The notes under the pieces are model-generated. The model was not told the DNA's origin. It saw only the letters and a list, made by a program, of their open reading frames with translations, and made no database searches. Below, in pieces: positions 1 to 40,006 of a stretch of 64,000 bases of DNA. A program made the translations under genes and the position numbers. The stretch lies in the IMG/VR virus record IMGVR_UViG_3300008116_000002; one strand, given 5' to 3'. Origin of the DNA: a virus. Lineage: Duplodnaviria; Caudoviricetes. Each line of letters opens with the position of its first letter. Position 1 is the first letter of the stretch.

Positions 1-2
1 TT

Positions 3-194
3 TTGGTAGATGATCTTTGTGATTCAGGCAAAACCTTAATTGGAATAAAAGAGTTATATTCCTTTTGCGATATTGACACGGCGGTGTTATTATATAATGT
101 GGATCAAATCCATGTACCAACATACTATGCTAAAGAATTTAGTAGAAAAGAACAAAAAGAATTTATTGATTTCTGGTGGGAAGATTATAAATAA
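3..194 (+). CDS. Type I phosphoribosyltransferase, C-terminal part (truncated by window start)
   Basis: PRPP-binding motif VDDLCDSGKT; directly upstream of folE. Confidence 0.8.
   Translation: MVDDLCDSGKTLIGIKELYSFCDIDTAVLLYNVDQIHVPTYYAKEFSRKEQKEFIDFWWEDYK
186..193 (+). promoter_or_regulatory. T4-type late promoter TATAAATA upstream of folE
   Basis: Exact TATAAATA, followed by hairpin TGTCAC/GTGACA (198-215). Confidence 0.55.
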
Positions 195-254
195 CTATGT
201 CACATAAAGGTGACAAATTTCTAAACTCATATCCGTGTAAGGAAGGATTCAAAA

Positions 255-932
255 ATGTCATATAACAAAACAAAAACTGACCCTGAACTTGGTGCAAGGG
301 TACATGAACATCTTGTAAAGATGGGCGTGGAAACTCCCTCATTTAAAACAACACTAGACCGTAAAGATAAGATTGCAGAAATTGAAAAAAGTTTCAGTCA
401 TATCATGCAGGTATTGGGTCTTGATTTAGACGACGATAGTCTAGCAGAAACTCCAAAGCGTGTTGCTAAGATGTACGTGAATGAAATTTTCTGGGGACTA
501 GATTACGACGCATTCCCTAAGTGTACTACTGTTGATAATAAGATGCATTACAATGAAATGGTAGTAGAACGTAATGTCATTGTTCAAAGTAATTGCGAAC
601 ATCACTTTGTAGTTATTGACGGTCTTGCTACAGTAGCATATGTACCTAATAAAAAAGTATTGGGACTAAGTAAAATTAATCGTATTGTGGAATACTTTAG
701 TAAGCGTCCACAGATTCAGGAACGTCTAACAGAGCAAATTTTTCATGCACTAAGTTATATTCTTGAAACAGATGATGTCGCAGTAATGATTGATGCTCAG
801 CATTACTGTGTAAAATCTCGAGGCGTAGAAGATACGGGCAGTTCGACAGTAACAGTTCGTCTCGGTGGTGGCTTTAAAACCGATCCTGCAGCAAGAAATG
901 AATTTTTAAGTATTGCCCGAATGGGAAAATAA
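255..932 (+). CDS. folE: GTP cyclohydrolase I
   Basis: ETPKRVAKMY, SNCEHHF, GLSKINRIVEYFSKRPQIQERLT, HYCVKSRG motifs. Confidence 0.97.
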   Translation: MSYNKTKTDPELGARVHEHLVKMGVETPSFKTTLDRKDKIAEIEKSFSHIMQVLGLDLDDDSLAETPKRVAKMYVNEIFWGLDYDAFPKCTTVDNKMHYNEMVVERNVIVQSNCEHHFVVIDGLATVAYVPNKKVLGLSKINRIVEYFSKRPQIQERLTEQIFHALSYILETDDVAVMIDAQHYCVKSRGVEDTGSSTVTVRLGGGFKTDPAARNEFLSIARMGK

Positions 933-1445
933 ATGACAGTTAATATTATGGTTGATCTGGAGACAATGTCTACTAGATCACACGCTGCGATTTGTTCAAT
1001 AGGTGCAGTAAAGTTTGAAGGTAAAGAGATTCTCGATACCTTTTACTGCACCATTGACTTACGAACCTGCAAAGATGTTGGATTGCATATATCTAAAGAA
1101 ACTGTGGAGTGGTGGTCAAAGCAAAACAAAGAAGCACTAAGAGCTTTAACTAAAGACACAATACCTTTGCAAGAAGCCTTAGATAAATTTGAGATTTGGT
1201 TAGGTCCTAAAAGTTTACCTGTCTGGGGGAATGGTGCAGTATTTGATAATACAATTCTTGCTAATGCATATTTTTATTCGGGTAGAGAACCTCCTTGGAA
1301 ATGTTGGGATGACAGATGTTATCGAACGGTTAAGAATTTATTCCATTGGATTCCTGCAGACGAGAGAGAAGGTGTTTATCATAATGCTTTAGATGATGCT
1401 ATGTATCAGACAAAACATTTAATAAAGATTTTAGGTGAAGAATGA
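933..1445 (+). CDS. DEDDh 3'-5' exonuclease (RNase T/DnaQ-like, phage type)
   Basis: VDLET, WGNGAVFD, HNALDDA motifs. Confidence 0.85.
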   Translation: MTVNIMVDLETMSTRSHAAICSIGAVKFEGKEILDTFYCTIDLRTCKDVGLHISKETVEWWSKQNKEALRALTKDTIPLQEALDKFEIWLGPKSLPVWGNGAVFDNTILANAYFYSGREPPWKCWDDRCYRTVKNLFHWIPADEREGVYHNALDDAMYQTKHLIKILGEE

Positions 1446-2806
1446 ATACGTATCGTAAAAGAATTGCATTTTGCTTAAGTGATCAACATACTATCCCTCA
1501 TGGTGGCCTTGGTCAATTTGCTAAATCCTTCGTTGAGACTTTTACCCCTCTCGGATATAAGATCGATATCATCACAGACAAACCCACAACCAATTTAGAT
1601 TTTAAAAAATATTTAGAATCAGTTGGTGCTAACTTCGAATGGTGTCCTCAACCAATATCATATAGTAATCACACCAAAACATTTATGTTTGAAGATTCCT
1701 ATAACTTTGAGAAGATGGCATCGTTTAGAGATGCTATGATGCATGCTTTAAGTAGAAATCTCTATGACATTATTATCTGCAACACATTAGAATCTTTTCC
1801 CGCAATCTATTCGTTGAACCTACACAAAAATGTACAAATTATTTACTATACTCACAACGAAAGTATGGTATTTCTTGATGACAGAACTTGGAAGAATGAA
1901 TTTACAGAATCCTTTAACGAGGTGTTCAACGCATTGATGCGTGTTAAAGGCATTACTATAGGTACACAGACAGAGAGAAATTTAGTAGAATTAAATCATA
2001 ATGGTATTTTAAATTCAGAGTGTTTACCGATTCCAATGACTGAAACTAGTTTGTTGGAAGAAAATTTTAATATTAGAGAAGGTATTCTTTGGATCGGTCG
2101 TTGGGAGCCAAGAAAGAATCCTGATGAATATATTCGAGTAATTAAAGAAACAGGATTGCCTGCAAAAATTATTACCAATACAAATGGTGCAAAAAAGTTC
2201 GCAGCTGAACTAGATGCAATAGGCGCTAAATATGAGATGAAGGTTGGGGTGTATGGAAAAGAGAAATCTGATTTTCTAAGATCTGCTAGGATAGCATATA
2301 ACCCTGCTATTCGAGAAAGTTTTGGATTGGCATTTTGGGAAACGCTTGGACATATGCCAACCTTTGCTTTAGATGGTATGTCTTGGTTGAAAAATTTTAA
2401 TAGTACTTTTTACTTTGCCGAAAGTAAAAATGTAATGGTCAATAAAATTAAAGATGCCTACGAAAAATATTCTAATCCAAAAGATTGGTATGATACTGGA
2501 GCATTAGAATATGTTAAGAACATTAATAACGAAGGTATCAAAAAATGGATTGCCTGCTTTGATAGTTTTAAACCAACTCAATCAAATTCAGATAAAGCAA
2601 AAATTAATGAAGTGGAAACCACATCATATAAAGAGTTCATTATAAGTCTAGAAAGAAAGGCTTTGGCTATCGACGATGTCAAATCTGTATTGACAAACAA
2701 AGGAAAATTTAATATAATCTATACTGATGAGAACACTTATTTAACCAAAGATAAAGACTTTATACCAACCGAAAGAAGTAACTCCTTAGAAAGTTTATTT
2801 GTATGA
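1442..2806 (+). CDS. GT-B (GT4-like) glycosyltransferase
   Basis: N-terminal HGGLGQF, WIGRWEPRKNP, and ESFGLAFWE (EX7E) motif. Confidence 0.8.
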   Translation: MNTYRKRIAFCLSDQHTIPHGGLGQFAKSFVETFTPLGYKIDIITDKPTTNLDFKKYLESVGANFEWCPQPISYSNHTKTFMFEDSYNFEKMASFRDAMMHALSRNLYDIIICNTLESFPAIYSLNLHKNVQIIYYTHNESMVFLDDRTWKNEFTESFNEVFNALMRVKGITIGTQTERNLVELNHNGILNSECLPIPMTETSLLEENFNIREGILWIGRWEPRKNPDEYIRVIKETGLPAKIITNTNGAKKFAAELDAIGAKYEMKVGVYGKEKSDFLRSARIAYNPAIRESFGLAFWETLGHMPTFALDGMSWLKNFNSTFYFAESKNVMVNKIKDAYEKYSNPKDWYDTGALEYVKNINNEGIKKWIACFDSFKPTQSNSDKAKINEVETTSYKEFIISLERKALAIDDVKSVLTNKGKFNIIYTDENTYLTKDKDFIPTERSNSLESLFV

Positions 2807-4092
2807 GCAAACAATTAGAATATGTTATATCAGGTCCTGCATACTTAAGACTGGGTGCAGAGCAATGTAATGATCCTGAGACTTTAGACATGATTAATAG
2901 CATGATTCTAAATACTGTTCACAATAAAAATAACCATCAGTTTTCTCTTTTGTATAATGGATTTACAGAAAAGAACTTTGGAGCCAAATTACAAAAGTAC
3001 AGACCAGCAATTAAAAATATTCATGCAGACTCAGGCGGTCTGCAAATTATTACTAGGGGTCTACAAAATACTCCTGAGACAAGAGAAAAGGTTTATACGA
3101 ATCAAGGAACCTATGCAGACATAGGTATGGCATTTGACGAAATTCCTGTTAAGGCAACAACTTCATCTGGCACTAGTTCTAAGATTGATACTAAGCGTCG
3201 CTATGTAGATATAGAAAATTTTGATGCTTATGCAAAGCAAACAGGTAAGAATGTAAAAGATCAGATTGAAAAATTTGATGCTATGGGAAGTAAATGCCGA
3301 CCATTTGTTATTGTACAAGGATCGGGTCATGATACCTATGCTAGATGGTCTGAGTTATTATTAAAAGAAATACCACAAAATTTACACAACAGAATAGGCG
3401 GAGTTGCTATGGGATCCGCTGCTTTAGGCATGGGTCCTTTGGAAGATGTTAAACGAGCATTTTATGCAACGACTGTTCCTTTTGATAAACCTTTTCATCT
3501 ACACGTTCTTGGTGTAGGTGCATTAAAACGAATCCTTCCTTATCTATTGTTTAGTCAAACTGGTTTATATGAAGGCATAGATATTTCATATGACTCAACT
3601 ACACATTCTATGTCGCTGGACAATGGATTGTTTTATTTCTCATTTAGCAAAAAGAATGCGCCAGGTGATTATGGCGGATCATCTGTAAAAATGGGAAGGG
3701 CATATTCTAATATTTACAGAACAGTATCTGAAGAAATTAATTCTGTATGTGGTACATCATATGACCCCGAGGAGTATCACAAGTTAATGAATATTGCTGT
3801 TGGACAATATTTAGAAGAAGGCGGAAAGTTTATTGACATTATGAGAGCAAGATTGGGGTTTATTCTAACCAATGTACATAATTTTACATATGACGTTTCT
3901 AATCTAATGAATTCTAAAGAAGCATTTTTAAAATTCTGCAGAGAAAAGAATTGTGAAAACGAATATGCCACATTATTTGACGTAAAAACAATTGATGACT
4001 TCAATCATTGGGAATCTCAGGTAGGTAAATTTATGGATTCAGAGCCAGTGAATATTGTAGCACCATCTTCACTTGAGGAGTTATTTGCATGA
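2803..4092 (+). CDS. dpdA: TGT-family transglycosylase, probable DNA 7-deazaguanine transglycosylase (DpdA-like)
   Basis: HADSGGLQ (TGT DSGGFQ-like), AFDEIP, VQG, HLHVLGVG and YDSTT motifs; context with folE/queD. Confidence 0.72.
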   Translation: MSKQLEYVISGPAYLRLGAEQCNDPETLDMINSMILNTVHNKNNHQFSLLYNGFTEKNFGAKLQKYRPAIKNIHADSGGLQIITRGLQNTPETREKVYTNQGTYADIGMAFDEIPVKATTSSGTSSKIDTKRRYVDIENFDAYAKQTGKNVKDQIEKFDAMGSKCRPFVIVQGSGHDTYARWSELLLKEIPQNLHNRIGGVAMGSAALGMGPLEDVKRAFYATTVPFDKPFHLHVLGVGALKRILPYLLFSQTGLYEGIDISYDSTTHSMSLDNGLFYFSFSKKNAPGDYGGSSVKMGRAYSNIYRTVSEEINSVCGTSYDPEEYHKLMNIAVGQYLEEGGKFIDIMRARLGFILTNVHNFTYDVSNLMNSKEAFLKFCREKNCENEYATLFDVKTIDDFNHWESQVGKFMDSEPVNIVAPSSLEELFA

Positions 4093-4484
4093 TTATTAGG
4101 CAAGACGTTAGACCCAATAAAATGATCTGGGTTACCTTTCGCAAAGAAGGTATTCATTGTTATCCCGCAGCAGCCACAGATCCTAATCTAGCAACAGGAG
4201 ACAAATATGATGTTTCGTTCCTTGCCAATCCTCATCGGCATATTTTTCATTTCAGGGTGTGGATCTCCATCACTCACAATGACCGTGATATCGAGTTCAT
4301 CCAATTCAAACGGTGGTTGGAATCATTGTATTCAGGGGAAGAAGATTGTTTGCGATTGGACTACAAATCATGCGAGATGATGTCAGATGAATTATATGAA
4401 AGAATAACACAAAGATATCCTAATAGAGAAGTTTGGATTGAAGTATCCGAAGATGGTGAGAATGGTTCTTTTATTAAATACTGA
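4089..4484 (+). CDS. QueD-like T-fold protein, DpdL-like
   Basis: LANPHRHIF fits LxxxHRHxF; SCEM and EVSEDGEN resemble QueD C-terminal motifs; overlaps the dpdA stop. Confidence 0.6.
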   Translation: MIIRQDVRPNKMIWVTFRKEGIHCYPAAATDPNLATGDKYDVSFLANPHRHIFHFRVWISITHNDRDIEFIQFKRWLESLYSGEEDCLRLDYKSCEMMSDELYERITQRYPNREVWIEVSEDGENGSFIKY

Positions 4485-4491
4485 GGTTTAA

Positions 4492-5670
4492 ATGAATAAA
4501 TTATATTACATGGGCTTAGAGCCTTACGAAGGTAGATATACTCTTCAGCTTCAACAATGGAATGAAGAAGTATTTAAACGTCGAGGCATTAATTATGAAA
4601 TTATTCATGGTGATACCTTAGATAATTCTAAAGCAATTGTCACGGGACAAGTATTAGATGCACATGGAAGAAGCTATTATTCTTTGACGCAGATGGCAAA
4701 GCTTGTTCAAAAGATGAAAGCGGGCGAAATAAGATATGATGATGTAATTTTCTTTGAGGATATGTTTACCCCCGGTATAGAAGCTCTTCCATATATTATG
4801 GATCAGTGTGGCTGGGAATATCAACCAAGAGTTTTTGTTCGTTGTCTAGCACAGACTATTGATCCTGATGACTTTCTTCATGTCTGGGATATGCAGGAGT
4901 GGATGGCACATTATGAGAAGATGGTAAATGTATGGGTAAACGGAGTTCTTGCTTCTAATGAAGAAATGGTAGCCCATATGAAAATTGCAGGTTGGAATGT
5001 TCCTATGTATAATATTTCTGGTCTTGCTTTTAGTAAAGATGAAGTTAGAAGTAGAGTTAAGGAAATTAAACCTTTTCAGGAAAGAAAAAATCGAGTTGTC
5101 TTTGCTGCAAGATTCGATCAAGAAAAACAACCTGATTTCTTTATGGATATTGTAGAACATTATGGGCCTAATTCTGATATAGAATTTGCAGTATTGTCAG
5201 GTGGCCCATTACGCAGCAATGATGAAAAATATTTAGAAAGAGCAAAGCAACTTCAGGCTACTAATTCTAATTTTAAAATTTATGAAAATTTGCAAAAGAA
5301 TGAATATTATGAAATTCTTGCAGATTCGAAAGTTCTATTTAATTGCGCACTACAGGATTGGGTAAGTAATACTGCATCAGAAGCAGACGCTCTAGGAACA
5401 AATTGTTTATTTCCTGCGTATAGATCATTCCCTGAGACTTTTGCTAATGATGCAGAATGCCTTTATATCCCTTGGTCAAAAGAAGACGCTACAAATAAAC
5501 TTGAATGTTTATTAGAATTTCCTAGAAGCAATATAGGTAAACTAGCAGATTGGACTTCAGGAACTATTGATAGATGTTTAGATATTATTCTTTCAAATCC
5601 TGCAGCAAATGAGTATAATAGAAATGTTAAAACATATCGAAACTTTTTAGCACAAAGTAAATATGAATAA
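4492..5670 (+). CDS. GT-B glycosyltransferase (possible DNA glycosyltransferase)
   Basis: FAARFDQEKQP and DWVSNTASE acceptor/donor-type motifs; lies inside the deazaguanine cluster. Confidence 0.7.
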   Translation: MNKLYYMGLEPYEGRYTLQLQQWNEEVFKRRGINYEIIHGDTLDNSKAIVTGQVLDAHGRSYYSLTQMAKLVQKMKAGEIRYDDVIFFEDMFTPGIEALPYIMDQCGWEYQPRVFVRCLAQTIDPDDFLHVWDMQEWMAHYEKMVNVWVNGVLASNEEMVAHMKIAGWNVPMYNISGLAFSKDEVRSRVKEIKPFQERKNRVVFAARFDQEKQPDFFMDIVEHYGPNSDIEFAVLSGGPLRSNDEKYLERAKQLQATNSNFKIYENLQKNEYYEILADSKVLFNCALQDWVSNTASEADALGTNCLFPAYRSFPETFANDAECLYIPWSKEDATNKLECLLEFPRSNIGKLADWTSGTIDRCLDIILSNPAANEYNRNVKTYRNFLAQSKYE

Positions 5671-6652
5671 TACTGTTATTGTAACGGGTGCCGCCGGTTA
5701 TATCGGTGGTACCATATGCGCTAAGCTCAAAGAAAAGGGGTATTCTGTTGTAGGTATAGATAGAAGAGAATTGCCCTCTCATCTATATCAATACATAGAC
5801 CATTTCCTTAAGGTAGATTTTACACATGAGTTTTCTTTAAGGCGTATTGACAGAAAACCGTTGGCGGTTATTCATTGCGCCGGAACAAGTTTAGTTGGTC
5901 CTAGTATTGAAAATCCAAGTGGTTATTATGACAATAATGTAGTTAAAACTTTAAAGTATATAGATTACATAAGATCTCATTCTCCATATACTAAATTTAT
6001 TTTTAGTAGTAGTGCATCTGTATATGGTAATCCGATGAGTTCAAAACCAATTACTGAAAATTTTGACACTAACCCGATCTCGCCATACGGTCAGTCTAAA
6101 TTGATGACTGAGATGATGCTAAAATCTTTTAAAAGTGCCTATGATTTAAAATATGTTTCATTCAGATATTTTAATGCGTGCGGTGCCTTAAGCGATGGCG
6201 CACATGGTCAGGATCCCGATGCAACGCATATATTTGCCAGACTCTTTGAATCAATAAAAAAAGAAACACAATTCTTTTTAAATGGCAAAGATTATGTAAC
6301 AAAGGATGGAACCTGCATACGAGATTATGTCCATGTAGAGGATATAGCCAATGCACACATAATAGCTATTGAAAAAAATATCGAAGGGATATATAATATA
6401 GGATCAGATACAGGTACGTCTAATCTAGAAATTATTAAACAGGTAGGTAAATTTTTCGGGAAACCTCTATCAATAGAGATTAAAGAACAAAGAATGGGGG
6501 ATCCCGCAATTTTAGTTGCAAGTGCTAAAAAGTTATCTGATGAAACAGGCTGGAAAGCAGAACATAGTATCAAAAAAATTATTAAAGATTTAAATGATTG
6601 GTATGACTCTGAAAACTATGCCAAGAGGACTAAGGCAATCATCCCTCTATAA
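5663..6652 (+). CDS. galE: UDP-glucose 4-epimerase
   Basis: TGAAGYIG, FSSSASVYG, YGQSK, RYFNACGA, CIRDYVHV motifs. Confidence 0.9.
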   Translation: MNNTVIVTGAAGYIGGTICAKLKEKGYSVVGIDRRELPSHLYQYIDHFLKVDFTHEFSLRRIDRKPLAVIHCAGTSLVGPSIENPSGYYDNNVVKTLKYIDYIRSHSPYTKFIFSSSASVYGNPMSSKPITENFDTNPISPYGQSKLMTEMMLKSFKSAYDLKYVSFRYFNACGALSDGAHGQDPDATHIFARLFESIKKETQFFLNGKDYVTKDGTCIRDYVHVEDIANAHIIAIEKNIEGIYNIGSDTGTSNLEIIKQVGKFFGKPLSIEIKEQRMGDPAILVASAKKLSDETGWKAEHSIKKIIKDLNDWYDSENYAKRTKAIIPL

Positions 6653-6666
6653 AGACTCTGCTTGCT
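6624..6666 (+). promoter_or_regulatory. Candidate H-type pseudoknot (preQ1-I-like) in the queD leader
   Basis: AGAGG(6624-28)/CCTCT(6644-48) stem, A-rich tail ATAAAG, loop GGCAA(6634-38) complementary to TTGCT(6662-66); SD AGGAG at 6682-86. Confidence 0.4.
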
Positions 6667-6693
6667 GTCAAACTTGCTCATAGGAGACTAGAG

Positions 6694-7221
6694 ATGGCAA
6701 AATTTTATTCAACAAAAACTTATGGTAATGACAGAGGATTGTCATGTTGTTTCAGACAATGGCGTGCTACACATAGTCATTGTTCAACATTGCATGGTTA
6801 CTCAATTGGTATTAAACTCATATTTGAATGCGATACACTAGATGATAAAAATTGGTGTATGGACTTTGGTGGTCTTAAAGAATTCAAAGCATGGGCAGAT
6901 CATATGTTCGATCACACATTAGTTGTTGCAGAAGACGACCCGCTGTTAGATCGTTTTAAAGAAATGAGCGGCTGGAGTTCTAATCCAGAGCATGACGGCA
7001 ATCCTGAGCGAGTACAAGTAGAACCATATCGCAGATCGGGTGTTTGTGATCTACGTATTGTACCTTCTGTAGGATGTGAAATGTTTGCTAAACTATGCTA
7101 TGACAAAATGGCAGAACTGTTGGCATCAGGTAGTATGCGCTATCCAATCAATCCAAGCGTAAGAGTAAAATCTGTAGAAGTATTTGAACATGCAGGTAAC
7201 TCTGCTACATATGAAGGATAA
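6694..7221 (+). CDS. queD: 6-carboxy-5,6,7,8-tetrahydropterin synthase
   Basis: HCSTLHGY, MDFGGLK, FDH, GCE and VEVFEH motifs. Confidence 0.88.
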   Translation: MAKFYSTKTYGNDRGLSCCFRQWRATHSHCSTLHGYSIGIKLIFECDTLDDKNWCMDFGGLKEFKAWADHMFDHTLVVAEDDPLLDRFKEMSGWSSNPEHDGNPERVQVEPYRRSGVCDLRIVPSVGCEMFAKLCYDKMAELLASGSMRYPINPSVRVKSVEVFEHAGNSATYEG

Positions 7222-7717
7222 AACAAATATAGCAAAAGGTGTCAATAGTAAGGATGAGAAGATAGGTGATTTGACTGTAGCATTTATTAATCAAAGCACT
7301 TCTGAATATCCCGTTACTGTTGGCACCGCAAAGTTTGAACCTGTTCCCGTAACTAAACAAAAAGATTTAATGTTGAATGTAGCTAGACTACATGCACAAC
7401 AAGAGTATGATAGAATAATGGAATTAGTTGCTGTGCTTCAAAAGCAAGCTAAGCAAATTATGAAGCGGCTGGAGTTTACAGATAAAGTCCATGCTGCAGA
7501 ATATAAGTTTCAAATTTATCATGGACAATGTTATTGGTTAGCCTTTGATCTTAATATTAAAAAATATATTTTACACCACTTAGGACCAAATGATTGGTCT
7601 ACTGGCACACCCGATAATTTACAATACGTTACTCGTGTCAAATGGTTAGGTGATCATACCTGGTTAGAAGTCGATGAACATGGAAATACAATAAATGAAA
7701 ATAGCGCTAGTTACTGA
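7211..7717 (+). CDS. Conserved hypothetical protein (DUF2452-like)
   Basis: Start reassigned to ATG 7211; pattern ARLHAQQEYDRI...FQIYHGQCYWL recalled from this family. Confidence 0.55.
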   Translation: MKDKTNIAKGVNSKDEKIGDLTVAFINQSTSEYPVTVGTAKFEPVPVTKQKDLMLNVARLHAQQEYDRIMELVAVLQKQAKQIMKRLEFTDKVHAAEYKFQIYHGQCYWLAFDLNIKKYILHHLGPNDWSTGTPDNLQYVTRVKWLGDHTWLEVDEHGNTINENSASY

Positions 7718-8747
7718 TACACACTTTGGTGCAAGATCAGACTCCTTGGCATTTGATGCTTACTTCAAAAAGTTTTATCAAGAAGTATTTTTCCCAGAAT
7801 TAGATAAGAGAGGCATTGAAAAGATAATACATCTTGGAGATTGCTTTGATCGTCGCAAATATGTAAATTTTAATTCTTTGAAATCCTGCAGAGAGTATTT
7901 CTTCGATGAGGTAACTAAAAGAAATATTCAAATGGACATGATCGTAGGTAACCATGATACATTTTTTAAAAATACCAATGATGTAAATTCGCCTGATCTT
8001 TTACTAGGAGAATATAATAACATACTAGCATTTGATCGCCCGACGGAAGTAGATGGTATCGTTTACTTGCCTTGGTTGTGTGCAGATAATTATCATGAAG
8101 CAACTGATCTAATTAAGAAAACTAAATCAAAAGTTTGTTTCGGACATTTAGAAATTGCAGGTTTCGTAATGTTCAAAGGACAAAACACTCATGAATCGCA
8201 TGAAGGATTAGATCCCGGGATGTTTAAGAAATTTGATTTAGTATGCTCTGGTCATTACCACCACAAACATAGCAAAGGTAATATACATTATCTAGGTAAT
8301 CCCTATCAGATGTTTTGGAATGATCATGAAGATGATCGTGGATTCCATATATTTGATACTGAAACTTTAGAGTTAGAGTTTATTAAAAATCCTTTTTCTA
8401 TCTTTGAGAAATATTACTACGATGATGAGAAAGAGGATCCCGATTCTATAGATTCGGATGTGTTTGCTAAAAAATTAATTAAACTTATTGTTGTCAATAA
8501 AAAGGACTTCGTAAAATTTGATAGGTTTATAGAAAGAATATATTCAAAAGAACCTATTGAATTAAAAATTATTGAGGACTTTTCTGAATTCGAAGCCGAA
8601 GCACTAGACGAATCTATTGACTTAGAAGACACAATGACATTATTATCTAACTATGTAGATAGTGTAGAGACAGATGCCGATAGAGATAAAATAAAAGGTA
8701 TTCTGAGAACACTATACGTTGAAGCGCAGCACTATGAGGAAGCATGA
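7695..8747 (+). CDS. gp47: T4 gp47-like recombination endonuclease subunit (Mre11/SbcD family)
   Basis: DTHFG, LGD, VGNHD, GH and SGHYH metallophosphoesterase motifs; adjacent to gp46. Confidence 0.95.
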   Translation: MKIALVTDTHFGARSDSLAFDAYFKKFYQEVFFPELDKRGIEKIIHLGDCFDRRKYVNFNSLKSCREYFFDEVTKRNIQMDMIVGNHDTFFKNTNDVNSPDLLLGEYNNILAFDRPTEVDGIVYLPWLCADNYHEATDLIKKTKSKVCFGHLEIAGFVMFKGQNTHESHEGLDPGMFKKFDLVCSGHYHHKHSKGNIHYLGNPYQMFWNDHEDDRGFHIFDTETLELEFIKNPFSIFEKYYYDDEKEDPDSIDSDVFAKKLIKLIVVNKKDFVKFDRFIERIYSKEPIELKIIEDFSEFEAEALDESIDLEDTMTLLSNYVDSVETDADRDKIKGILRTLYVEAQHYEEA

Positions 8748-10462
8748 TAAAATTTAAAACTATTCGATGGAAAAACTTTTTATCTACTGGTTCACAATTC
8801 ACCGAAGTTAAATTAGATAGATCTACCACAACTCTTGTTGTGGGTGAAAACGGCGCAGGTAAAAGTACTATCCTAGATGCTCTGTGCTTTGTTCTTTTTA
8901 ACAAACCTTTTAGAAATATCAATAAGCCTCAGTTGATGAACAGCATCAACGGGAAGAATCTTCAAGTTGAGCTAGAGTTTAGTATTGGTCCAAAAGAATA
9001 TAAGGTAGTTCGAGGCATAAAGCCAGGTATCTTTGAAATTTATTCGCAGGGCGAATTGTTGAACCAAGATGCTGCAGCTAAAGATTACCAAAAGTATCTA
9101 GAAGATGGTATTCTAAAATTAAATTATAAATCATTTACTCAAATTGTTATACTTGGCAGCGCATCCTTTACTCCCTTTATGCAGTTACCACTAGGACATC
9201 GAAGAGAAATTATTGAGGATATTTTAGACATACAAATATTCACGGTAATGAACAGTGTTCTAAAAAATAAAATTGCAGATAATAAAGCCAAGATTACAGA
9301 CATAGAAACTAAAATAGAAATAGGCAAGAACAAGGTAAAGTTACAGCAAAGCTACATAAAAACACTTGAAGAAGATAAACAAAAGAAGGTAGAAGATGTA
9401 CGAAAACGAATATCTGAATCGACTGCGGAGATTACAAAACTCAATGGTGACGTTGCAATCGAGAAAGAAAAAGAGACTGGCCTTCAATCCTCTGTACTCG
9501 ATGCGAAGGAGAAGCGCAATAAGAGATCTGAAATGGAAGTTATCCTTAGAAAACTTACCGAAAAAATTAAGAATCAGGAAAAGAATATTGGGTTTTACGA
9601 GCAACATGATGTTTGCCCGACATGTAATCAAGGACTTGACGAACAACATAAACAAGAAGCGATCTCTACGCACACGCACAAGATTGAAGAAGTACAACTT
9701 GCCGTTGAATCTCTCTCCAAAGAACTTGAAGATATTGAAACTAGACTTGATGAGATTGCTGCAATCGAAGAAGAAATATCTCAATGTAAAGAAAATATCA
9801 TCGAGTATAACTCAAAGATAATTAGCGAACAAAACTATATAAAAAGACTGCAAGAGGAAATACAGGAAGAAACAGGTAACGTATCTAATATAGAAGATGA
9901 AAGAGCTACTTTAAAAACATTGGCGAAGGAAGTAGTAGTTTTATCTGAAGATAAAGGTAAGTTAGTTCAGGAAAAACATTACTATGATATTGCGAATATT
10001 CTGTTAAAAGATACAGGAATTAAAACAAAAATTATTCGACAGTATTTGCCCGTTATTAATAAACTGGTAAATAAGTATTTGACCGCAATGGATTTCTTTG
10101 TTCATTTTGAACTTGATGAAACATTCAACGAAACCATAAAGTCAAGACACAGAGATGATTTTTCCTACGCCTCATTTAGTGAGGGCGAAAAGCAAAGAAT
10201 AGATTTGGCATTGCTGTTCACTTGGAGAACTATTGCTAAAATGAAAAATTGCGCTAGCACAAATCTTTTATTGCTTGATGAGGTTTTTGATTCTTCTTTA
10301 GATGCAAACGGAACAGACTATGTAATGAACCTGATAAATACTTTAGGAGACGAGACTAATGTATTCGTCATTAGTCACAAAGGAGATCTTTTATTTGATA
10401 AATTCAGAAGTGTTATCAAATTTGAGAAACAACAAAATTTTTCTAGAATACAAGGAAATTAA
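8744..10462 (+). CDS. gp46: T4 gp46-like recombination ATPase (Rad50/SbcC family)
   Basis: Walker A GENGAGKS, zinc hook CPTC, signature FSEGEK, Walker B LLLLDE, ISH. Confidence 0.96.
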   Translation: MIKFKTIRWKNFLSTGSQFTEVKLDRSTTTLVVGENGAGKSTILDALCFVLFNKPFRNINKPQLMNSINGKNLQVELEFSIGPKEYKVVRGIKPGIFEIYSQGELLNQDAAAKDYQKYLEDGILKLNYKSFTQIVILGSASFTPFMQLPLGHRREIIEDILDIQIFTVMNSVLKNKIADNKAKITDIETKIEIGKNKVKLQQSYIKTLEEDKQKKVEDVRKRISESTAEITKLNGDVAIEKEKETGLQSSVLDAKEKRNKRSEMEVILRKLTEKIKNQEKNIGFYEQHDVCPTCNQGLDEQHKQEAISTHTHKIEEVQLAVESLSKELEDIETRLDEIAAIEEEISQCKENIIEYNSKIISEQNYIKRLQEEIQEETGNVSNIEDERATLKTLAKEVVVLSEDKGKLVQEKHYYDIANILLKDTGIKTKIIRQYLPVINKLVNKYLTAMDFFVHFELDETFNETIKSRHRDDFSYASFSEGEKQRIDLALLFTWRTIAKMKNCASTNLLLLDEVFDSSLDANGTDYVMNLINTLGDETNVFVISHKGDLLFDKFRSVIKFEKQQNFSRIQGN

Positions 10463-10464
10463 TT

Positions 10465-11058
10465 ATGGCTGATACTTGGCAATTAGATGTACATACAGTA
10501 AACGCATATTGTTATTACAGTGGTGTGTTTGATAAGTTAATGGTTGATGATATAGTAAAAATGGGCGATGAGCTGTTACTAGGTGATGCACAGGTCGGCG
10601 GAGATTTTGCATCGGTTGGCGGCAAAAATGAAAAGATCAGAAAAACTACAATCGGCTGGGTACCTACTACTGAGCAAAATGCCTGGTTATATAGAATGTT
10701 AACCGATGCAGTTCAAAGAGCAAACAAAGAATGGTTTGGATTTGATCTTAATCATATTGAATCTTTACAATATTCTATCTACAATAAAGGTGACTTCTAT
10801 GATGCGCATGTAGACCATCACTATCAGGGCGTAGGACAGTATCCAAGAAAGTTAAGTTTTTCTATGCAGTTATCTGATCCTGAGGACTATAAAGGTGGCG
10901 ACGTTATGCTAATTACCTCACAGGACCCATTTCCTATTCCAAAAGAAAGAGGTACAATCACATTCTTCCCATCCTATACTTTGCATGAAGTTAAACCTGT
11001 TACAAAAGGAACTCGCAGAGCTTTAGTTGGTTGGGTACATGGGCCACGTTGGAAATGA
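10465..11058 (+). CDS. 2OG-Fe(II) oxygenase (PKHD/P4H-like)
   Basis: HVD...H facial triad (AHVDH, LHEVKPV) and RRALVGW. Confidence 0.88.
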   Translation: MADTWQLDVHTVNAYCYYSGVFDKLMVDDIVKMGDELLLGDAQVGGDFASVGGKNEKIRKTTIGWVPTTEQNAWLYRMLTDAVQRANKEWFGFDLNHIESLQYSIYNKGDFYDAHVDHHYQGVGQYPRKLSFSMQLSDPEDYKGGDVMLITSQDPFPIPKERGTITFFPSYTLHEVKPVTKGTRRALVGWVHGPRWK

Positions 11059-11198
11059 CACTAGTTATAAATTTTTTAGCTTTTTTGCTGTTATTGACTT
11101 ATTCCATAAGTCAGGGTGATCTTTTTGGAATGCTTCTGAGTTCAATTGGCTTTTTAATTATGCACGTTTTATTAGAGGATCTAAAAGATGCCGACTAA
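11055..11198 (+). CDS. Small membrane protein, 47 aa (below the ORF-track cutoff)
   Basis: MTLVINFLAFLLLLTYSISQGDLFGMLLSSIGFLIMHVLLEDLKDAD; ATGA overlap with the upstream stop. Confidence 0.55.
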   Translation: MTLVINFLAFLLLLTYSISQGDLFGMLLSSIGFLIMHVLLEDLKDAD

Positions 11199-11463
11199 AA
11201 TTCCTTTAGAGTATTTGGACTTAAATAATGATTTTGGCTTTACTGCGGTAAATGAAAATGAAGTGACCGAACCAATTCTAACAGAAGTCAAAACTTCTGT
11301 TGATTCGGAAACAAAACAAAAATTACAAACTCTTGAAAAATTAATTTTACCGCTTTTGGTAAACTTAATGAAGAATCCGGAAAAGGAATATATCCATTGG
11401 CCTAACAGGGTTCCGCTGATAGAGAAACAAATTGAAAAGATTTTGGCTATAACTAGGGCTTGA
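11188..11463 (+). CDS. Conserved T4-like phage hypothetical protein
   Basis: Intact ORF; NDFGFTAV and LMKNPEKEYIHWPNR. Confidence 0.6.
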   Translation: MPTKIPLEYLDLNNDFGFTAVNENEVTEPILTEVKTSVDSETKQKLQTLEKLILPLLVNLMKNPEKEYIHWPNRVPLIEKQIEKILAITRA

Positions 11464-11488
11464 CTTCTAACCTGTTAGGTGTTATAAT
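11460..11488 (+). promoter_or_regulatory. Sigma70-type early promoter
   Basis: TTGACT-17 nt-TATAAT with TG extension. Confidence 0.75.
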
Positions 11489-11513
11489 ATAAAAAACCTG
11501 ACAGGAGACCTAG

Positions 11514-28527: not shown

Positions 28528-28806
28528 ATGATAGAATATAAGTATAATGAGGGTGAGCTATTAAAACAATTTAAAGAATATATCGATGCAACTTATAATC
28601 AACACTATTCTATGAATAGGTATCAGGCTACCGAATTTATTATTGATAATGGACATGGTGTAGGATTTACCGCAGGCAATGTCATGAAATATGTTCAAAG
28701 ATACGGAAAGAAAGCCGGAAGGAATAGACAAGACTTGCTAAAGGTGTTACACTATGCATTAATGCTGTTGTATGTGCATGACATTGAAACTAAGGAGACT
28801 AAATAA
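28528..28806 (+). CDS. Conserved T4-like protein (DUF3310-like)
   Basis: HY...GNVMKYVQRYGKK...DLLK; start 28528 after GAGGA. Confidence 0.65.
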   Translation: MIEYKYNEGELLKQFKEYIDATYNQHYSMNRYQATEFIIDNGHGVGFTAGNVMKYVQRYGKKAGRNRQDLLKVLHYALMLLYVHDIETKETK

Positions 28807-29462
28807 TGCAGATTAGTAATGATACAATTCAAGTTCTAAAGAACTTTGCTACTATTAATTCGAATCTTATGATTCGAAAAGGTAAACGTTTGGCAACAAT
28901 TAGTACAGCAAAAAACATTTTTGCTAAAGCGGAAGTTGCTGAAGAGTTCCCTGTAGAGCTTGCAATCTATGATTTGAATTCCCTTCTTGCTCTATTGACA
29001 TTGATGGAAAATCAAAATGTAGAATTCGGTGAAAAGAGCCTAACCATTTCTAAAGACAATGGTAAGTTTGAATATTTCTATGCATCGCAAAATGTGATTG
29101 TAGCTGCCCCTGAAAAGGATATTGAACTTGATACACATTATCAGTTTAAGCTTACCTCAGAAGATGTGAACATGATTATGAAAGCGGCTGCTATTACAGG
29201 CGCGCCGACTATTTCTATTGTTAGTAAAAATGGTACAGTTAATCTAACAGTAGGTGATCGTAAGAATGATACGGCAAATAATTATAAGAAAACGATTGGC
29301 TCAAGTGAAGAAACTTTCGATTGCCACATGGCAGTAGAAAACTTTAAGGTCATCCCTGATGCATATAATGTAATTATTTCTAAGAAGAAAGCATTCTTAT
29401 TCAAGAGTGAAACTAAATCTACTGAGTATTTTATTGCAATGGAAACCGATTCTGTAGTTTAA
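28806..29462 (+). CDS. gp45: Sliding clamp
   Basis: LKNFATIN, IYDLNSLL, VENFKVIP; position before gp44. Confidence 0.93.
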   Translation: MQISNDTIQVLKNFATINSNLMIRKGKRLATISTAKNIFAKAEVAEEFPVELAIYDLNSLLALLTLMENQNVEFGEKSLTISKDNGKFEYFYASQNVIVAAPEKDIELDTHYQFKLTSEDVNMIMKAAAITGAPTISIVSKNGTVNLTVGDRKNDTANNYKKTIGSSEETFDCHMAVENFKVIPDAYNVIISKKKAFLFKSETKSTEYFIAMETDSVV

Positions 29463-29488: not shown

Positions 29489-30430
29489 ATGGAATATCGT
29501 GAAGATGAATTTCTCTGGGTTGAAAAGTTTCGTCCCAGAAAATTAGATGATTGTATTCTCCCACCTAGCCAGAAGAAAGTTTTTCAGGAAATGCTGGCAA
29601 AGGGGGAGATACAAAATATGCTTTTGTGTGGCGGAGCTGGCATGGGCAAGACTACTGTTGCAAGAGCATTGTGTGAAGAACTACAAACTGATTACATTGT
29701 CATTAATGGTTCGGAAGAATCTGGTATTGATGTTCTTCGTACAAAAATTAAACAGTTTGCGTCGGCGGTTTCTTTTAGCGGCAAGCCAAAGGTTGTAATT
29801 TTAGATGAGGCAGACTATCTAAATCCAAATTCTACACAACCTGCTCTTAGAGCTTTTATTGAAGAATTTTCTTCAAATTGCAGATTTATTCTTACTTGTA
29901 ACTTTAAGAATAGAATCATTCCTCCCCTACATTCGAGAACTGCGGTTATTGAATTTAAATTACCTAAGACAGAAAAACCTAAAATTGCTGCAGCATTTTT
30001 TAAACGAGTAAATGAAATACTTGAGATTGAAAAGGTAGAAGCAGATGGAAAGGTAATTGCAAAGGTAATTGAAAAGCATTTCCCTGATTATCGCAGAATT
30101 TTAAATGAACTTCAGAGATACAGCGGTTCAGGTAAAATCGATGAGGGCATCTTTACTAGTCTAGGTGAAAGCAATATGCAAGAGCTTATTGCAACACTAA
30201 AGGATAAAGACTGGAAGAAGATGCGAACCTGGGTGGTCAATAATATTGATAATGACCCACAGACAATTTTTAGAAAAATGTATGATACTTTATGCGATGA
30301 AGTAGTTCAGATTCCTCAATTAGTATTATTACTTGCCGACTATCAGTATAAGTCTGCTTTCTGTGCAGACCAAGAAATCAATCTTGTTGCTTGCCTTACA
30401 GAAATTATGGCAGCAGTGGAGTTTAAATGA
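29489..30430 (+). CDS. gp44: Clamp loader large subunit
   Basis: WVEKFRP, GGAGMGKT, ILDEAD, HSR. Confidence 0.96.
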   Translation: MEYREDEFLWVEKFRPRKLDDCILPPSQKKVFQEMLAKGEIQNMLLCGGAGMGKTTVARALCEELQTDYIVINGSEESGIDVLRTKIKQFASAVSFSGKPKVVILDEADYLNPNSTQPALRAFIEEFSSNCRFILTCNFKNRIIPPLHSRTAVIEFKLPKTEKPKIAAAFFKRVNEILEIEKVEADGKVIAKVIEKHFPDYRRILNELQRYSGSGKIDEGIFTSLGESNMQELIATLKDKDWKKMRTWVVNNIDNDPQTIFRKMYDTLCDEVVQIPQLVLLLADYQYKSAFCADQEINLVACLTEIMAAVEFK

Positions 30431-37516: not shown

Positions 37517-40006
37517 ATGAAATTCTACACTAGCGTCAATCAGTATGGTAACAATATTTTGGTTAGGGGCGTGAACAATGGCAAAATGGTTCAGGAAAGA
37601 ATCCCCTTTAAACCGACGCTTTTTGTCAAATCCAGAGAGGAAAGTAAGTACAAATCCCTATACGGGGAAAATCTTCAATCTATAAATTTTGAGAATATTA
37701 ACGACGCCAAGGATTATATTTCTCAGTATAAAGATGTAGAAAACTTTCCGATCTTCGGTAATACCAATTTTGCGTATCAGTATATAACTGAGAACTTTTC
37801 TGATAACATAGAATTTGATATTTCTCAGATTAAAATTTGGTCCTTGGATATTGAAACATCTGCGGACAATGGATTCCCCGATGTATCAAGCGCACAGGAA
37901 AAGGTTCTTCTAATTACAATTCAAGATTACGAAACGAAGAAACTTACCACATTCGGTCTAAATGATTACGCCCCTAAAACTGAAAAGCATACCTATATTG
38001 GATGTAAAGATGAGATAACACTTCTCACTAAATTTTTAGATTTTATTTCCAGTGATTACCCTCACATCATAACAGGTTGGAACGTAGAATTTTTTGATAT
38101 CCCGTACCTATGTAATCGCATTCGAAGAATTCTTGGCGAGGATACACTTAGAACTTTTTCTCCCTGGAGAAATGTCAAGGAAAAAAACATCATCAAATTG
38201 AAGAAAGAAAATATTTCTTTTGATCTTCTCGGCATCGCTATTCTAGATTATTTAGATTTGTACAAGAAGTTTACTTATACAAATCAGGAATCCTACAAAC
38301 TAGATCACATCGCAAAAGTAGAACTAGGTAAAGAAAAATTATCCTATGAAGGAACCTTTACAGACTTTTATAAAAATGATTGGGAAAGGTTTGTTGACTA
38401 TAACATTCGAGATGTGGAACTTGTAGATGAACTAGAAGAAAAGATGAGACTAATTGAACTCATCTTAACTATGGCTTATGATGCAAAGTGTAATTATATT
38501 GATATCTTTTCTGCAGTAAGAACTTGGGATTGTATTCTTTATAATGAACTATGGAAAAAGAATATTGTAGTCCATCAAAGAGAGAATAGATCTGGCAGAC
38601 AAATTGCGGGTGCTTATGTCAAGGAACCTAAACCTGGTAAGTACAACTGGGTAGTTTCTTTTGATGCTACTAGTCTGTATCCAAGTATTATTATGCAGTA
38701 TAATATGTCTCCGGAAACTCTAATTACAGACTATCCATATCTGTATGATGTTAGTATATCTAAACTTCTGGAGAGTAAAGAAGATCTATCAGAACTTGAA
38801 GATAGAGATTATTGTATGACATCAAATGGTAGATGTTTCTCCAGAGATAAGCAAGGTGTATTTCCTGAAATTGTTCAAAAGTTATTTGATGATAGAAAGA
38901 AATATAAGAAACTGATGTTGGATGCTCAGAGTCAGTATGAAGAAACTAAAAATAAGCATTGGCTAAAAGAGATATCTAAGTATAATAACTTTCAGATGGC
39001 TAGAAAAATTCAAATGAATTCTTTGTTCGGAGCCATGGCAAATGAATACTTTAGATTTTATGACGACCACATTGCAGAAGGTATTACTTTAACAGGGCAG
39101 TATATTATTCAAAGTGTAGGTAAAGCCTTAGATGATTACCTGAATAAGGTATGCGGCACTAAAGACTTTCCTTATTCTTTTTATTCCGATACTGATTCCT
39201 GTTATATCACATTAGATCCCCTGGTTGAAAAATTCTACAAGAATCAATCCAAGGAAAAGATTGTTGGTATTCTCGACAAGATTTGTGAAACTAAGATTCA
39301 GGAAGTTCTAAATAAAGCATGCGATGGTATTGCATCCTACACAAATGCCTTTGATAAAAAAATTGTTTTTAAACGAGAGGCAATCGCAGAAACGGGTGTT
39401 TGGGTAGCTAAGAAAAGATATGCTTTGAACGTCTCGAATAATGAAGGGGTTCAATATAAAGAGCCCAAGTTGAAGGTGATGGGATTAGAAATCGTCAGAT
39501 CATCTACACCTGAGCCTGTAAGAGATGCACTTAGAGCGGCAGTTAAACTTGCACTAACCTCTGACGAGGAAACGCTTCAGAATTATATTAGAGACTTTGA
39601 ATCGGAATACAGAAAAATTAATCCAGAGGAGATATCCTTCCCTAGGGGAGTAAACGGATTAGATAAATATTCAGATAAAGCAAATATATATAAGCAAGCA
39701 ACTCCAATGCATGTCCGAGGAGCATTGCTTTATAATTTTTACTTGGAAAAATATGATCTAAGTAAAAAGTATCAGAGAATTAAAGAGGGTGACAAAATTA
39801 AGTTCATCTATCTCAAGGAACCTAATACTATAGGTGAGAACTGTATCGCATTTAACACTGTTATACCTCCAGAAATGGATCTTAGAAAATTTGCAGACTA
39901 TGATACAATGTTTGCGAAATCCTTTCTAGAACCTTTAACTACAATATTGGATGGTATTGGTTGGACAGCTAAACCGCAAGCTACATTAGAAGGATTATTC
40001 GGATGA
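37517..40006 (+). CDS. gp43: Family B DNA polymerase
   Basis: Exo DIET; SFDATSLYPSII; KIQMNSLFG; YSDTDS. Confidence 0.98.
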   Translation: MKFYTSVNQYGNNILVRGVNNGKMVQERIPFKPTLFVKSREESKYKSLYGENLQSINFENINDAKDYISQYKDVENFPIFGNTNFAYQYITENFSDNIEFDISQIKIWSLDIETSADNGFPDVSSAQEKVLLITIQDYETKKLTTFGLNDYAPKTEKHTYIGCKDEITLLTKFLDFISSDYPHIITGWNVEFFDIPYLCNRIRRILGEDTLRTFSPWRNVKEKNIIKLKKENISFDLLGIAILDYLDLYKKFTYTNQESYKLDHIAKVELGKEKLSYEGTFTDFYKNDWERFVDYNIRDVELVDELEEKMRLIELILTMAYDAKCNYIDIFSAVRTWDCILYNELWKKNIVVHQRENRSGRQIAGAYVKEPKPGKYNWVVSFDATSLYPSIIMQYNMSPETLITDYPYLYDVSISKLLESKEDLSELEDRDYCMTSNGRCFSRDKQGVFPEIVQKLFDDRKKYKKLMLDAQSQYEETKNKHWLKEISKYNNFQMARKIQMNSLFGAMANEYFRFYDDHIAEGITLTGQYIIQSVGKALDDYLNKVCGTKDFPYSFYSDTDSCYITLDPLVEKFYKNQSKEKIVGILDKICETKIQEVLNKACDGIASYTNAFDKKIVFKREAIAETGVWVAKKRYALNVSNNEGVQYKEPKLKVMGLEIVRSSTPEPVRDALRAAVKLALTSDEETLQNYIRDFESEYRKINPEEISFPRGVNGLDKYSDKANIYKQATPMHVRGALLYNFYLEKYDLSKKYQRIKEGDKIKFIYLKEPNTIGENCIAFNTVIPPEMDLRKFADYDTMFAKSFLEPLTTILDGIGWTAKPQATLEGLFG

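Follow-up and report, generated by a model that had tools for sequence, protein, structure and literature searches.

What base does a phage make when its genes for 7-deazaguanine synthesis and insertion into DNA are interleaved with genes for glycosyltransferases (GTs)? This question is raised by positions 3-7221 of a 64,000-nucleotide stretch, hereafter the window, of the IMG/VR virus record IMGVR_UViG_3300008116_000002 (Caudoviricetes), a phage of T4-like context from a freshwater source. A first-pass annotation had proposed that this phage attaches a sugar to the deazaguanine that it inserts. The genes which that annotation named are present where it had placed them, on the + strand, and family searches confirm them: nine co-oriented genes, most of them overlapping, encode in order a phosphoribosyltransferase (PRT) fragment, FolE, a 3’-5’ exonuclease, a first glycosyltransferase (GT1), a DpdA2-type transglycosylase, DpdL, a second glycosyltransferase (GT2), GalE and QueD. 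The genes for FolE and the exonuclease abut (0 nt), the exonuclease/GT1, GT1/DpdA and DpdA/DpdL junctions are each an ATGA overlap (-4), and further downstream the distances are +7 (DpdL/GT2), -8 (GT2/GalE) and +41 (GalE/QueD). We put at roughly 0.5 the probability that this is a QueC-less, DpdL-type 7-deazaguanine DNA modification system of a T4-like phage that has been extended by glycosylation, and we give the same even odds to its end product, as predicted from the genes, being a glycosylated deazaguanine in DNA.

The deazaguanine core of the cluster is the most readily assigned. FolE, the GTP cyclohydrolase I that catalyses the first step towards 7-deazaguanines, is encoded at 255..932 (+; Pfam 1.5e-61; NCBIfam NF006824, 322 bits against a cut-off of 202). 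QueD, 6-carboxytetrahydropterin synthase, is the last gene (6694..7221, +; Pfam PTPS 1.6e-16, phrog_2389 8.5e-36, TIGR03367 9e-9) and carries a C-x3-HGY motif where C-x3-HGH is usual. For the remaining steps we turned to relatives of the window phage, a set of 67 IMG/VR contigs (numbered with the prefix L below) with 70-96% protein identity for the 2803-4092 gene; three related contigs are complete genomes of 190-222 kb. The first-pass annotation had pointed upstream of the window for queE and queC, and the relatives bear out the former but not the latter. Directly upstream, between gp55 and FolE, they have a QueE-like radical S-adenosylmethionine gene; its best NCBIfam matches are to QueE models without exception, at 1e-16 to 6e-10, short of their cut-offs. 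QueC (PF06508) was absent from the three complete and two partial relatives, in a search whose control was positive in 14/14 control genomes.

The “QueD-like protein” that had been noted beside dpdA is indeed a T-fold QueD paralogue, but its identity is DpdL, the canonical QueD being the last gene of the cluster. This protein of 131 residues (4089..4484, +; phrog_17812) has LANPHRHIF at residues 45-53 and is 55% identical (1e-44) to the DpdL of Acidovorax phage ACP17 (gp125) and 32% identical to that of Cellulophaga phage phiST. The signature of the DpdL family is LxxxHRHxF, which replaces the CxxxHGH of QueD (PMC10516641). Since the relatives lack QueC and DpdL is present, the encoded route ends at 7-carboxy-7-deazaguanine (CDG) and then, if DpdL acts as proposed, at 7-deazaguanine. 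By its gene content, the cluster is thus a QueC-less, DpdL-type pathway, predicted to lead from CDG to 7-deazaguanine. DpdL also occurs in variant settings. In one distant contig (L082:1030-2142), a DpdL-like region forms the N-terminal part of a 370-residue protein, maybe a DpdL fusion, encoded between FolE and a GT2 homologue. In Rhizobium phage RHph_I1_18 (L077), DpdL is 60% identical to that of the window, and the next gene, where a GT2-family gene would be expected, encodes a macro-domain (Appr-1-p processing) protein.

The enzyme that would carry the base into DNA is encoded at 2803..4092 (+) and is assigned as a DpdA2-type DNA guanine transglycosylase. It matches KVP40.0122, which sits between folE and queC, at 1e-48 by tblastn, phrog_10773 at 9.8e-96 and, below threshold, the TIGR00430 Tgt model at 1e-5; tblastn matches were found in 71 cultured-phage records. 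The motifs DSGGLQ, FDEIP, QG, LGVG and SYDS are invariant in an alignment across five phage groups, and with them D76 (DSGGLQ), D112 (FDE) and D264 (SYDS). We take these to be the motifs of tRNA-guanine transglycosylase that hold its catalytic and base-binding aspartates, the comparison of catalytic residues being made at motif level. A profile of seven DpdA2 sequences had no match in the PDB at E up to 1, and in a single-sequence phmmer search of the PDB the match to Tgt, confined to the central barrel, was no better than 0.15-0.3. DpdA2 was defined in Vibrio phage nt-1, where it was shown to insert preQ0, and KVP40 is of the same genus as nt-1 (PMC6884629, PMC10516641).

Overlapping the start of this gene is GT1 (1442..2806, +). 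Pfam matches to both halves of the GT-B fold are weak (5e-3 and 9e-3), and a profile of six homologues retrieved the GT-B enzymes TreT, starch synthase (GBSS) and WlaC from the PDB at 0.007-0.03. Aligned by hhalign with the GT2 family, GT1 scored 96% probability (1.7e-9) across the donor domain. Its invariant residues are R220 and K225 (GRWE..K) and E292-x7-E300, and its ten nearest language-model clusters are all GT4. By these sequence comparisons, GT1 is a GT4-like GT-B glycosyltransferase.

GT1 precedes dpdA in 55 of 63 relatives. In seven relatives (L035, at 9102-10004; L031-L034, L055 and L063), it is swapped for an unrelated enzyme of 300 residues which has a DxD motif (ADNDTY) and ends in SSLESLFL, an LxxLF-like ending that most of its homologues keep. 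The replacement is predicted to fold as a GT-A glycosyltransferase (model confidence, pLDDT, 89), with Foldseek matches to TarP/TarS at about 1e-7. A lead from language-model features, that it belongs to the TAGT family, was dropped: HMMER gave no PF20691 match and the fold is generically GT-A/GT2-like. That two non-homologous sugar transferases should share one slot and one C-terminal tail has no easy explanation other than a slot reserved for a DNA-directed, replisome-associated glycosyltransferase. This part of the cluster also varies in other ways. Six relatives have a third glycosyltransferase (L018:7184-8119; Glyco_trans_1_4; phrog_18799) between FolE and the exonuclease, which is absent from the window. 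The gap between GT1 and dpdA widens to about 1 kb in three contigs (L050, L043 and L052), and in L050 an open reading frame (ORF) for a 333-residue GIY-YIG-like homing endonuclease lies in it on the minus strand (8999-10000).

The tail of GT1 recurs on DpdA. Among window ORFs of at least 60 residues, only three products end in [ST]LExLF: GT1 (NSLESLFV), DpdA (SSLEELFA) and the family-B DNA polymerase gp43 (ATLEGLFG; 37517..40006, +; Pfam DNA_pol_B 9e-33). The peptides SLESLFV (2783..2803, +) and SLEELFA (4069..4089, +) are putative sliding-clamp docking peptides, and the polymerase tail TLEGLFG is encoded at 39983-40003. No relative has lost the tail peptide, although the sequence just ahead of it is free to change. 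Synonymous variants occur at every conserved tail codon, there being 23 and 26 distinct DNA versions of the two tails, and in GT1 the L-E-x-L-F is conserved in 23 distinct DNA versions; selection thus acts on the protein. An origin of the tails as an artefact of ribosome-binding sites or overlapping start codons was rejected on this synonymous variation, and because the tailed genes of phages Ps15 and ACP17 precede a gap.

Across phage lineages, the DpdA tail co-varies with the tail of the phage’s own polymerase. ACP17 pairs SLDDLFE on the polymerase with TLDELFE on DpdA and Ps15 pairs SLEDLFGW with SLDDLFG, neither having a GT1, and in Synechococcus phage BUCT-ZZ01, where the polymerase ends in TLDDFFS and DpdA in SLDSFFD, the GT1 tail (SLEDFFND) follows suit. 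The pattern common to the tails of each phage is LDxLFE in ACP17, LxDLFG in Ps15 and LxxFF in BUCT-ZZ01. The DpdA tail of KVP40 is unlike the polymerase tail of KVP40. The gp43 polymerases of phages T4 and RB69 attach to the gp45 clamp through their extreme C-terminus. T4 α-glucosyltransferase binds gp45 as well (PMC13216743). The window encodes gp45 at 28806..29462 (+; Pfam gp45-slide_C 9.4e-9), and this is the presumed docking partner of the tails. A complex prediction of GT1 residues 405-454 with three gp45 copies is not used as evidence, since its control scored nearly as high. Together, the DpdA tails suggest a base exchange that is tethered to the clamp and coupled to the replisome.

GT2 (4492..5670, +) is the partner of DpdL. 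It passes the Pfam Glycos_transf_1 gathering cut-off (27.2 bits against 26.4), and its AlphaFold2 model has a GT-B fold at high confidence (pLDDT 95; predicted template-modelling score, pTM, 0.93). By Foldseek, it falls closest, among solved structures and in Swiss-Prot, to enzymes of the retaining GT4 type (glycogen synthase, BshA, MshA, PimA and SenB, about 1e-12). An alignment of 41 family members with 21-58% identity shows no change at R207, E211, K212 or Q288 and almost none at D289 and E297 (D-x7-E). As modelled, GT2 is a GT4-like GT-B glycosyltransferase. R15, Q67, D90, D124, D127 and W137 in the N-terminal domain are conserved too, which suggests one conserved acceptor throughout the family. 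A relation to QTMAN was considered and set aside: none of the 41 family members matched PF12038, and GTDC1 was not among the top 30 Swiss-Prot fold matches.

Is the presence of these transferases in a deazaguanine operon more than a coincidence of position? The first-pass annotation had suggested synteny in related phages as a check, and synteny is what was found. To the placing of GT1 before dpdA can be added two more: among related contigs of sufficient length, DpdL comes after DpdA in 51/51, and the gene that follows DpdL belongs to the GT2 family in as many (51/51), within a consensus order of gp55, QueE, (PRT), FolE, (extra GT), exonuclease, GT1, DpdA, DpdL, GT2, GalE and QueD, the brackets marking genes that vary. 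Four contigs (L058, at 11716-12789; L056, L057 and L067) have a GT2 of the ACP17 type, 38% identical to ACP17 gp124 and 22% to the GT2 of the window. Beyond close kin, the GT2 family amounts to 859 clusters at 50% identity, with at least 7,995 close homologues in metagenomes. All seven distant metagenomic members sampled (30-38% identity) have FolE, PTPS or QueE genes within 5 kb, and five of the six distant members with DNA have a DpdL with LxxxHRHxF within about 2.5 kb; the polymerases and DpdA types around them vary. Among cultured phages (50,697 records), all 18 full-length GT2-family matches fall within the 29 DpdL-carrying records, namely in ACP17, the PA5oct group, Phosso, BUDD, X1, BCSR5 and BUCT-ZZ01, mostly with DpdL and GT2 genes adjacent and with differing DpdA types. 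By synteny, co-occurrence with DpdL and clamp-type tails, the link of GT2 and GT1 to the deazaguanine pathway looks real.

Such a link might still arise if the DNA held plain 2’-deoxy-7-deazaguanosine (dDG), or the deoxynucleoside of CDG (dCDG), only, with GT1, GT2 and GalE acting on virion proteins or the host envelope and kept adjacent through shared expression timing. dDG has no hydroxyl acceptor, phiST attains 100% dDG without a GT2 homologue, the window has separate sugar genes (such as that at 30427-31428), and GT2 is acidic. However, GT2-family genes stay by DpdL across unrelated lineages and DpdA types, and a polymerase-type tail on both GT1 and its GT-A replacement is sensible only for a DNA-directed enzyme. 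We judge this account unlikely, though it deserves to be taken seriously.

The pairing of GT2 with DpdL, and not with any single DpdA type, can also be turned another way: GT2 could be a biosynthetic helper that works with DpdL on free CDG, 7-deazaguanine or a pterin, so that the sugar is transient or ends up on a soluble product and the DNA base is unglycosylated. GT2 is acidic and tail-less, most of the solved structures closest to it in fold belong to enzymes with small acceptors (BshA, MshA, SenB and LmbT), and HuiG glycosylates a free 7-deazapurine base. Moreover, dpdA and dpdL of ACP17 alone gave no dDG in Escherichia coli, and the authors proposed that enzymes were missing (PMC10516641). 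But the dpdA and dpdL of phiST failed in E. coli too, although phiST has no GT2, which makes the ACP17 failure uninformative. A helper role also leaves the tailed GT1 and the GT-A cassette unexplained, and the dedicated GalE suggests bulk use of sugar. We hold it to be improbable.

If the transferases do act on DNA, their acceptor could be another base, 5-hydroxymethylcytosine (hmC), 5-hydroxymethyluracil (hmU) or 5-hydroxycytosine, as for T4 α-/β-glucosyltransferase or TAGT, the deazaguanine genes being merely adjacent. The known DNA glycosyltransferases all act on hydroxylated pyrimidines, T4 α-glucosyltransferase binds gp45, and this enzyme ranks 39 among the structural matches of GT2. Against this, the three complete relatives gave no match to the thymidylate-synthase/dCMP-hydroxymethylase family (PF00303) and none to the Tet_JBP domain, the Tet search having been run without a positive control, and the GT2-DpdL pairing would go unexplained. 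Another base is, in our view, a rather remote prospect. As to family, searches with PF11440, PF09198 and PF20691 at E up to 10 found no match for GT1, GT2 or the GT-A replacement, and the leads to DNA-glycosyltransferase families were faint only (a PHROG β-glucosyl-HMC-α-GT match at 0.16, and TAGT by language-model features); the enzymes may all the same work as members of those families do.

GalE, the UDP-glucose 4-epimerase (5663..6652, +), is recognised by TIGR01179 at 288.9 bits, above the equivalog cut-off of 262.3. Of 45 relatives with a GT2 of the window type, 44 have GalE next to it, against none of four with the ACP17 type; as the relatives are close kin, this count is suggestive only. 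With FolE, PTPS-family proteins and a retaining GT-B, the cluster has the ingredients of a pteridine glycoside, which cyanobacteria synthesise with BGluT, and a soluble product of that kind, made by FolE, a PTPS-type enzyme and a GT, has to be considered. Yet QueE and the DpdA2 transglycosylase are integral to the cluster, and the clamp-type tails point to DNA; we give a soluble pteridine glycoside very little credence.

The reading that we favour, that a sugar is joined to the deazaguanine of phage DNA, can be set out as a pathway. FolE, QueD and QueE, assigned by homology, would produce CDG, which DpdL, a candidate decarboxylase, would turn into 7-deazaguanine. The DpdA2-type enzyme, likewise assigned by homology, would then swap guanine in DNA for this base, working at the replication fork or behind it and held to gp45 by its polymerase-like C-terminal peptide. 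GT2 and the tailed GT1 may add one or two sugars to the deazaguanine from a UDP-hexose, with GalE providing UDP-galactose. The sugar would be joined to the base within DNA, except that GT2, being acidic and tail-less, may act on the free base before DpdA inserts it, with GT1 then acting on DNA. The product, a bulky base in the major groove, would protect the DNA from restriction, and the slot before dpdA, with its GT1, GT-A enzyme and extra GT, may vary as glycan-diversifying cassettes do.

Three points of attachment can be proposed. The first is C7, a nucleophilic pyrrole carbon which faces the major groove and would be exposed only by decarboxylation; that C7 is free only after this step would explain the pairing of DpdL and GT2. 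The second is the 2-amino group, which has a precedent in huimycin and dapiramicin, and the third is an ester of CDG. In its most specific form, our proposal is that virion DNA contains 7-deazaguanine with one or two hexoses, installed at the fork by clamp-tethered DpdA and GT, and that GT2 together with DpdL creates the attachment, possibly a C-glycoside at C7. We advance this form more tentatively, as somewhat less likely than even.

Several observations weigh against a glycosylated base. Without a hydroxyl, 7-deazaguanine offers no acceptor for ordinary O-glycosylation, and we know of no precedent for C- or N-glycosylation on DNA by a retaining GT4-like enzyme. GT2 is acidic (pI 5.0) and without a C-terminal tail, so that a small soluble acceptor would suit it no less than DNA. 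Members of the GT1 family are encoded, too, by Erwinia jumbo phages in which DpdA and DpdL had no match, and the phage has a wider content of sugar-nucleotide genes, of which the dehydratase-like gene at 30427-31428 is an example. The absences of QueC and of an hmC route are those of relatives and not of the window phage’s own full genome. The proposed CDG decarboxylase activity of DpdL is unproven, and heterologous tests failed (PMC10516641). Lastly, 11 DpdL-carrying cultured phages, including phiST, have no GT2, so that GT2 is not required for the insertion of deazaguanine as such. In the cultured phages every full-length GT2-family gene is accompanied by DpdL and the converse is false; GT2 thus has the character of an accessory to the DpdL pathway, like the glucosyltransferases in relation to hmC. 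Of what the first-pass annotation claimed, the tie between the GTs and the deazaguanine system is supported, by synteny, DpdL co-occurrence, tails and the lack of an hmC, hmU or TET route in the complete relatives, and that the sugar sits on the inserted base is a matter of product chemistry that we infer from gene content.

Two further genes in the cluster have less obvious roles. The purine PRT gene is cut by the window start, so that only its 3’ part (3..194, +; Pfam Pribosyltran 1.1e-3 on the fragment) is seen; the full-length orthologue in contig L007 has 145 residues and a xanthine PRT match (2.8e-9). It was found in only 13 of 63 relatives, and also in BUCT-ZZ01. PRT could salvage the guanine freed by base exchange or ribosylate a deazapurine. 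The Rv2179c-like 3’-5’ exonuclease (933..1445, +; Pfam PF16473 9.8e-47; phrog_255 exonuclease) sits between FolE and GT1 in most relatives.

Around the cluster, the gene content is that of a T4-like phage. Genes for gp23, UvsY, UvsW and gp55 lie upstream in relatives; in the window, gp47/gp46-like genes (7695-10462) follow downstream and gp44 is at 29489-30430. At the DNA level, a megablast of positions 1-7800 against cultured phages found no match. Directly after QueD, overlapping its end by 38 nt, is a DUF2452 protein with a TTG start (7184-7717; Pfam 1e-7), conserved in this place in many relatives. A 2-oxoglutarate-Fe(II) oxygenase (10465-11058; PF13640 4.8e-16) comes directly after the gp47/gp46-like genes; it could in principle hydroxylate a base, and nothing ties it to the cluster. 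The sugar-nucleotide gene at 30427-31428 encodes a short-chain dehydrogenase/reductase resembling GDP-mannose dehydratase and stands directly after gp44, at the expected place of gp62. As to regulation, a T4 late-promoter-like TATAAATA box is found at 186-193, 62 nt 5’ of folE; such boxes are not enriched across the window (10 found against 11 expected), with 9 of the 10 on the + strand. Rfam covariance models had no match in positions 1-12000 at E up to 1, leaving a preQ1-I-like riboswitch considered at 6624-6693, before queD, unsupported.

The deazaguanine core of this system, a DpdL-type pathway with a DpdA2 enzyme, is known. We found no paper that describes the integration of GT2, GT1 and GalE with it or the tails of polymerase type that DpdA and GT1 carry, and our literature search found none on a glycosylated deazaguanine in phage or other DNA. 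To our knowledge, every DNA glycosylation reported to date is on a hydroxylated pyrimidine, and the deazaguanines reported in DNA are without exception small. With a glycosylated deazaguanine, a sugar on a purine analogue would be known from DNA for the first time. This new natural base, made by a new enzyme chemistry (a glycosyltransferase acting on a purine analogue), would unite these two themes, and it would bear on restriction evasion, on modification-dependent nucleases and on sequencing artefacts. The polymerase-type tail of DpdA bears, in turn, on how some phages replace guanine efficiently. The module is abundant, and cultured phages of Pseudomonas, Acidovorax, Xanthomonas, Synechococcus, Sinorhizobium and Burkholderia carry it.

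How does this system compare with those already known? In the biosynthesis of huimycin and dapiramicin, a GT4-type enzyme (HuiG for huimycin) puts a sugar on the 2-amino group of a free 7-deazapurine, and by description it is encoded, as in the window, with homologues of FolE, QueD and QueE (PMC7439116, 2026 preprint). Unlike the phage system, that of HuiG makes a soluble actinomycete antibiotic from preQ0, with QueC present and without DpdA. The glycosylated queuosine of animal tRNA, made by QTMAN (GTDC1) and QTGAL, also has a sugar on a 7-deazaguanine derivative in nucleic acid, but in that case the sugar is received by the cyclopentenediol of queuosine. QTMAN is a GT4-like GT-B enzyme.

T4 α- and β-glucosyltransferases resemble the window enzymes as GT-B proteins of a T4-type phage that would use a UDP-sugar after replication, one of the pair being clamp-tethered (α-glucosyltransferase; PMC13216743) and its partner not, and in having variable glycan cassettes. 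They differ in family, the window enzymes matching none of PF11440, PF09198 and PF20691, and in acceptor, since the purine analogue proposed here has no hydroxymethyl group. The Vibrio phages nt-1 and KVP40 are T4-like as well and have a DpdA2-family enzyme (29% identity, 1e-48) by folE, but they encode QueC plus QueF-like, Gat or ArcS, have preQ0-type bases at about 0.1% of G (PMC6884629), and possess neither DpdL nor a GT. Closer in its chemistry is phiST, the DNA of which is fully dDG and which encodes FolE, QueD, QueE, DpdL and DpdA3 (Cui, Hutinet et al., NAR 2023, PMC10516641). Both systems have FolE, QueD and QueE without QueC, a DpdL with LxxxHRHxF (32% identity) and a DNA transglycosylase of the TGT family. 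However, phiST has DpdA3 where the window has a DpdA2-type enzyme with a polymerase-like tail, and it lacks a GT2-family match where the window operon has two GT-B genes and GalE; the paper by Cui et al. has no mention of glycosyltransferases (PMC10516641).

The nearest parallels are the cultured phages in which DpdL lies near a GT2-family gene: ACP17 (Acidovorax), the PA5oct group (Pseudomonas), BUDD and X1 (Xanthomonas), Phosso (Sinorhizobium) and BCSR5 (Burkholderia). Most of these carriers differ from the window in having a single GT (ACP17-type, 22-38% identical) and no adjacent GalE, and PA5oct has another DpdA-like protein. PA5oct DNA is refractory to several enzymes whose recognition sites contain G, is attacked by a hypermodification-sensing nuclease and has been reported to contain a “modified G” (PMC12191111), the only published DNA chemistry that we found for the cultured carriers. 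Finally, Synechococcus phage BUCT-ZZ01 shares with the window the full GT1-DpdA-DpdL-GT2 order, together with matching tails.

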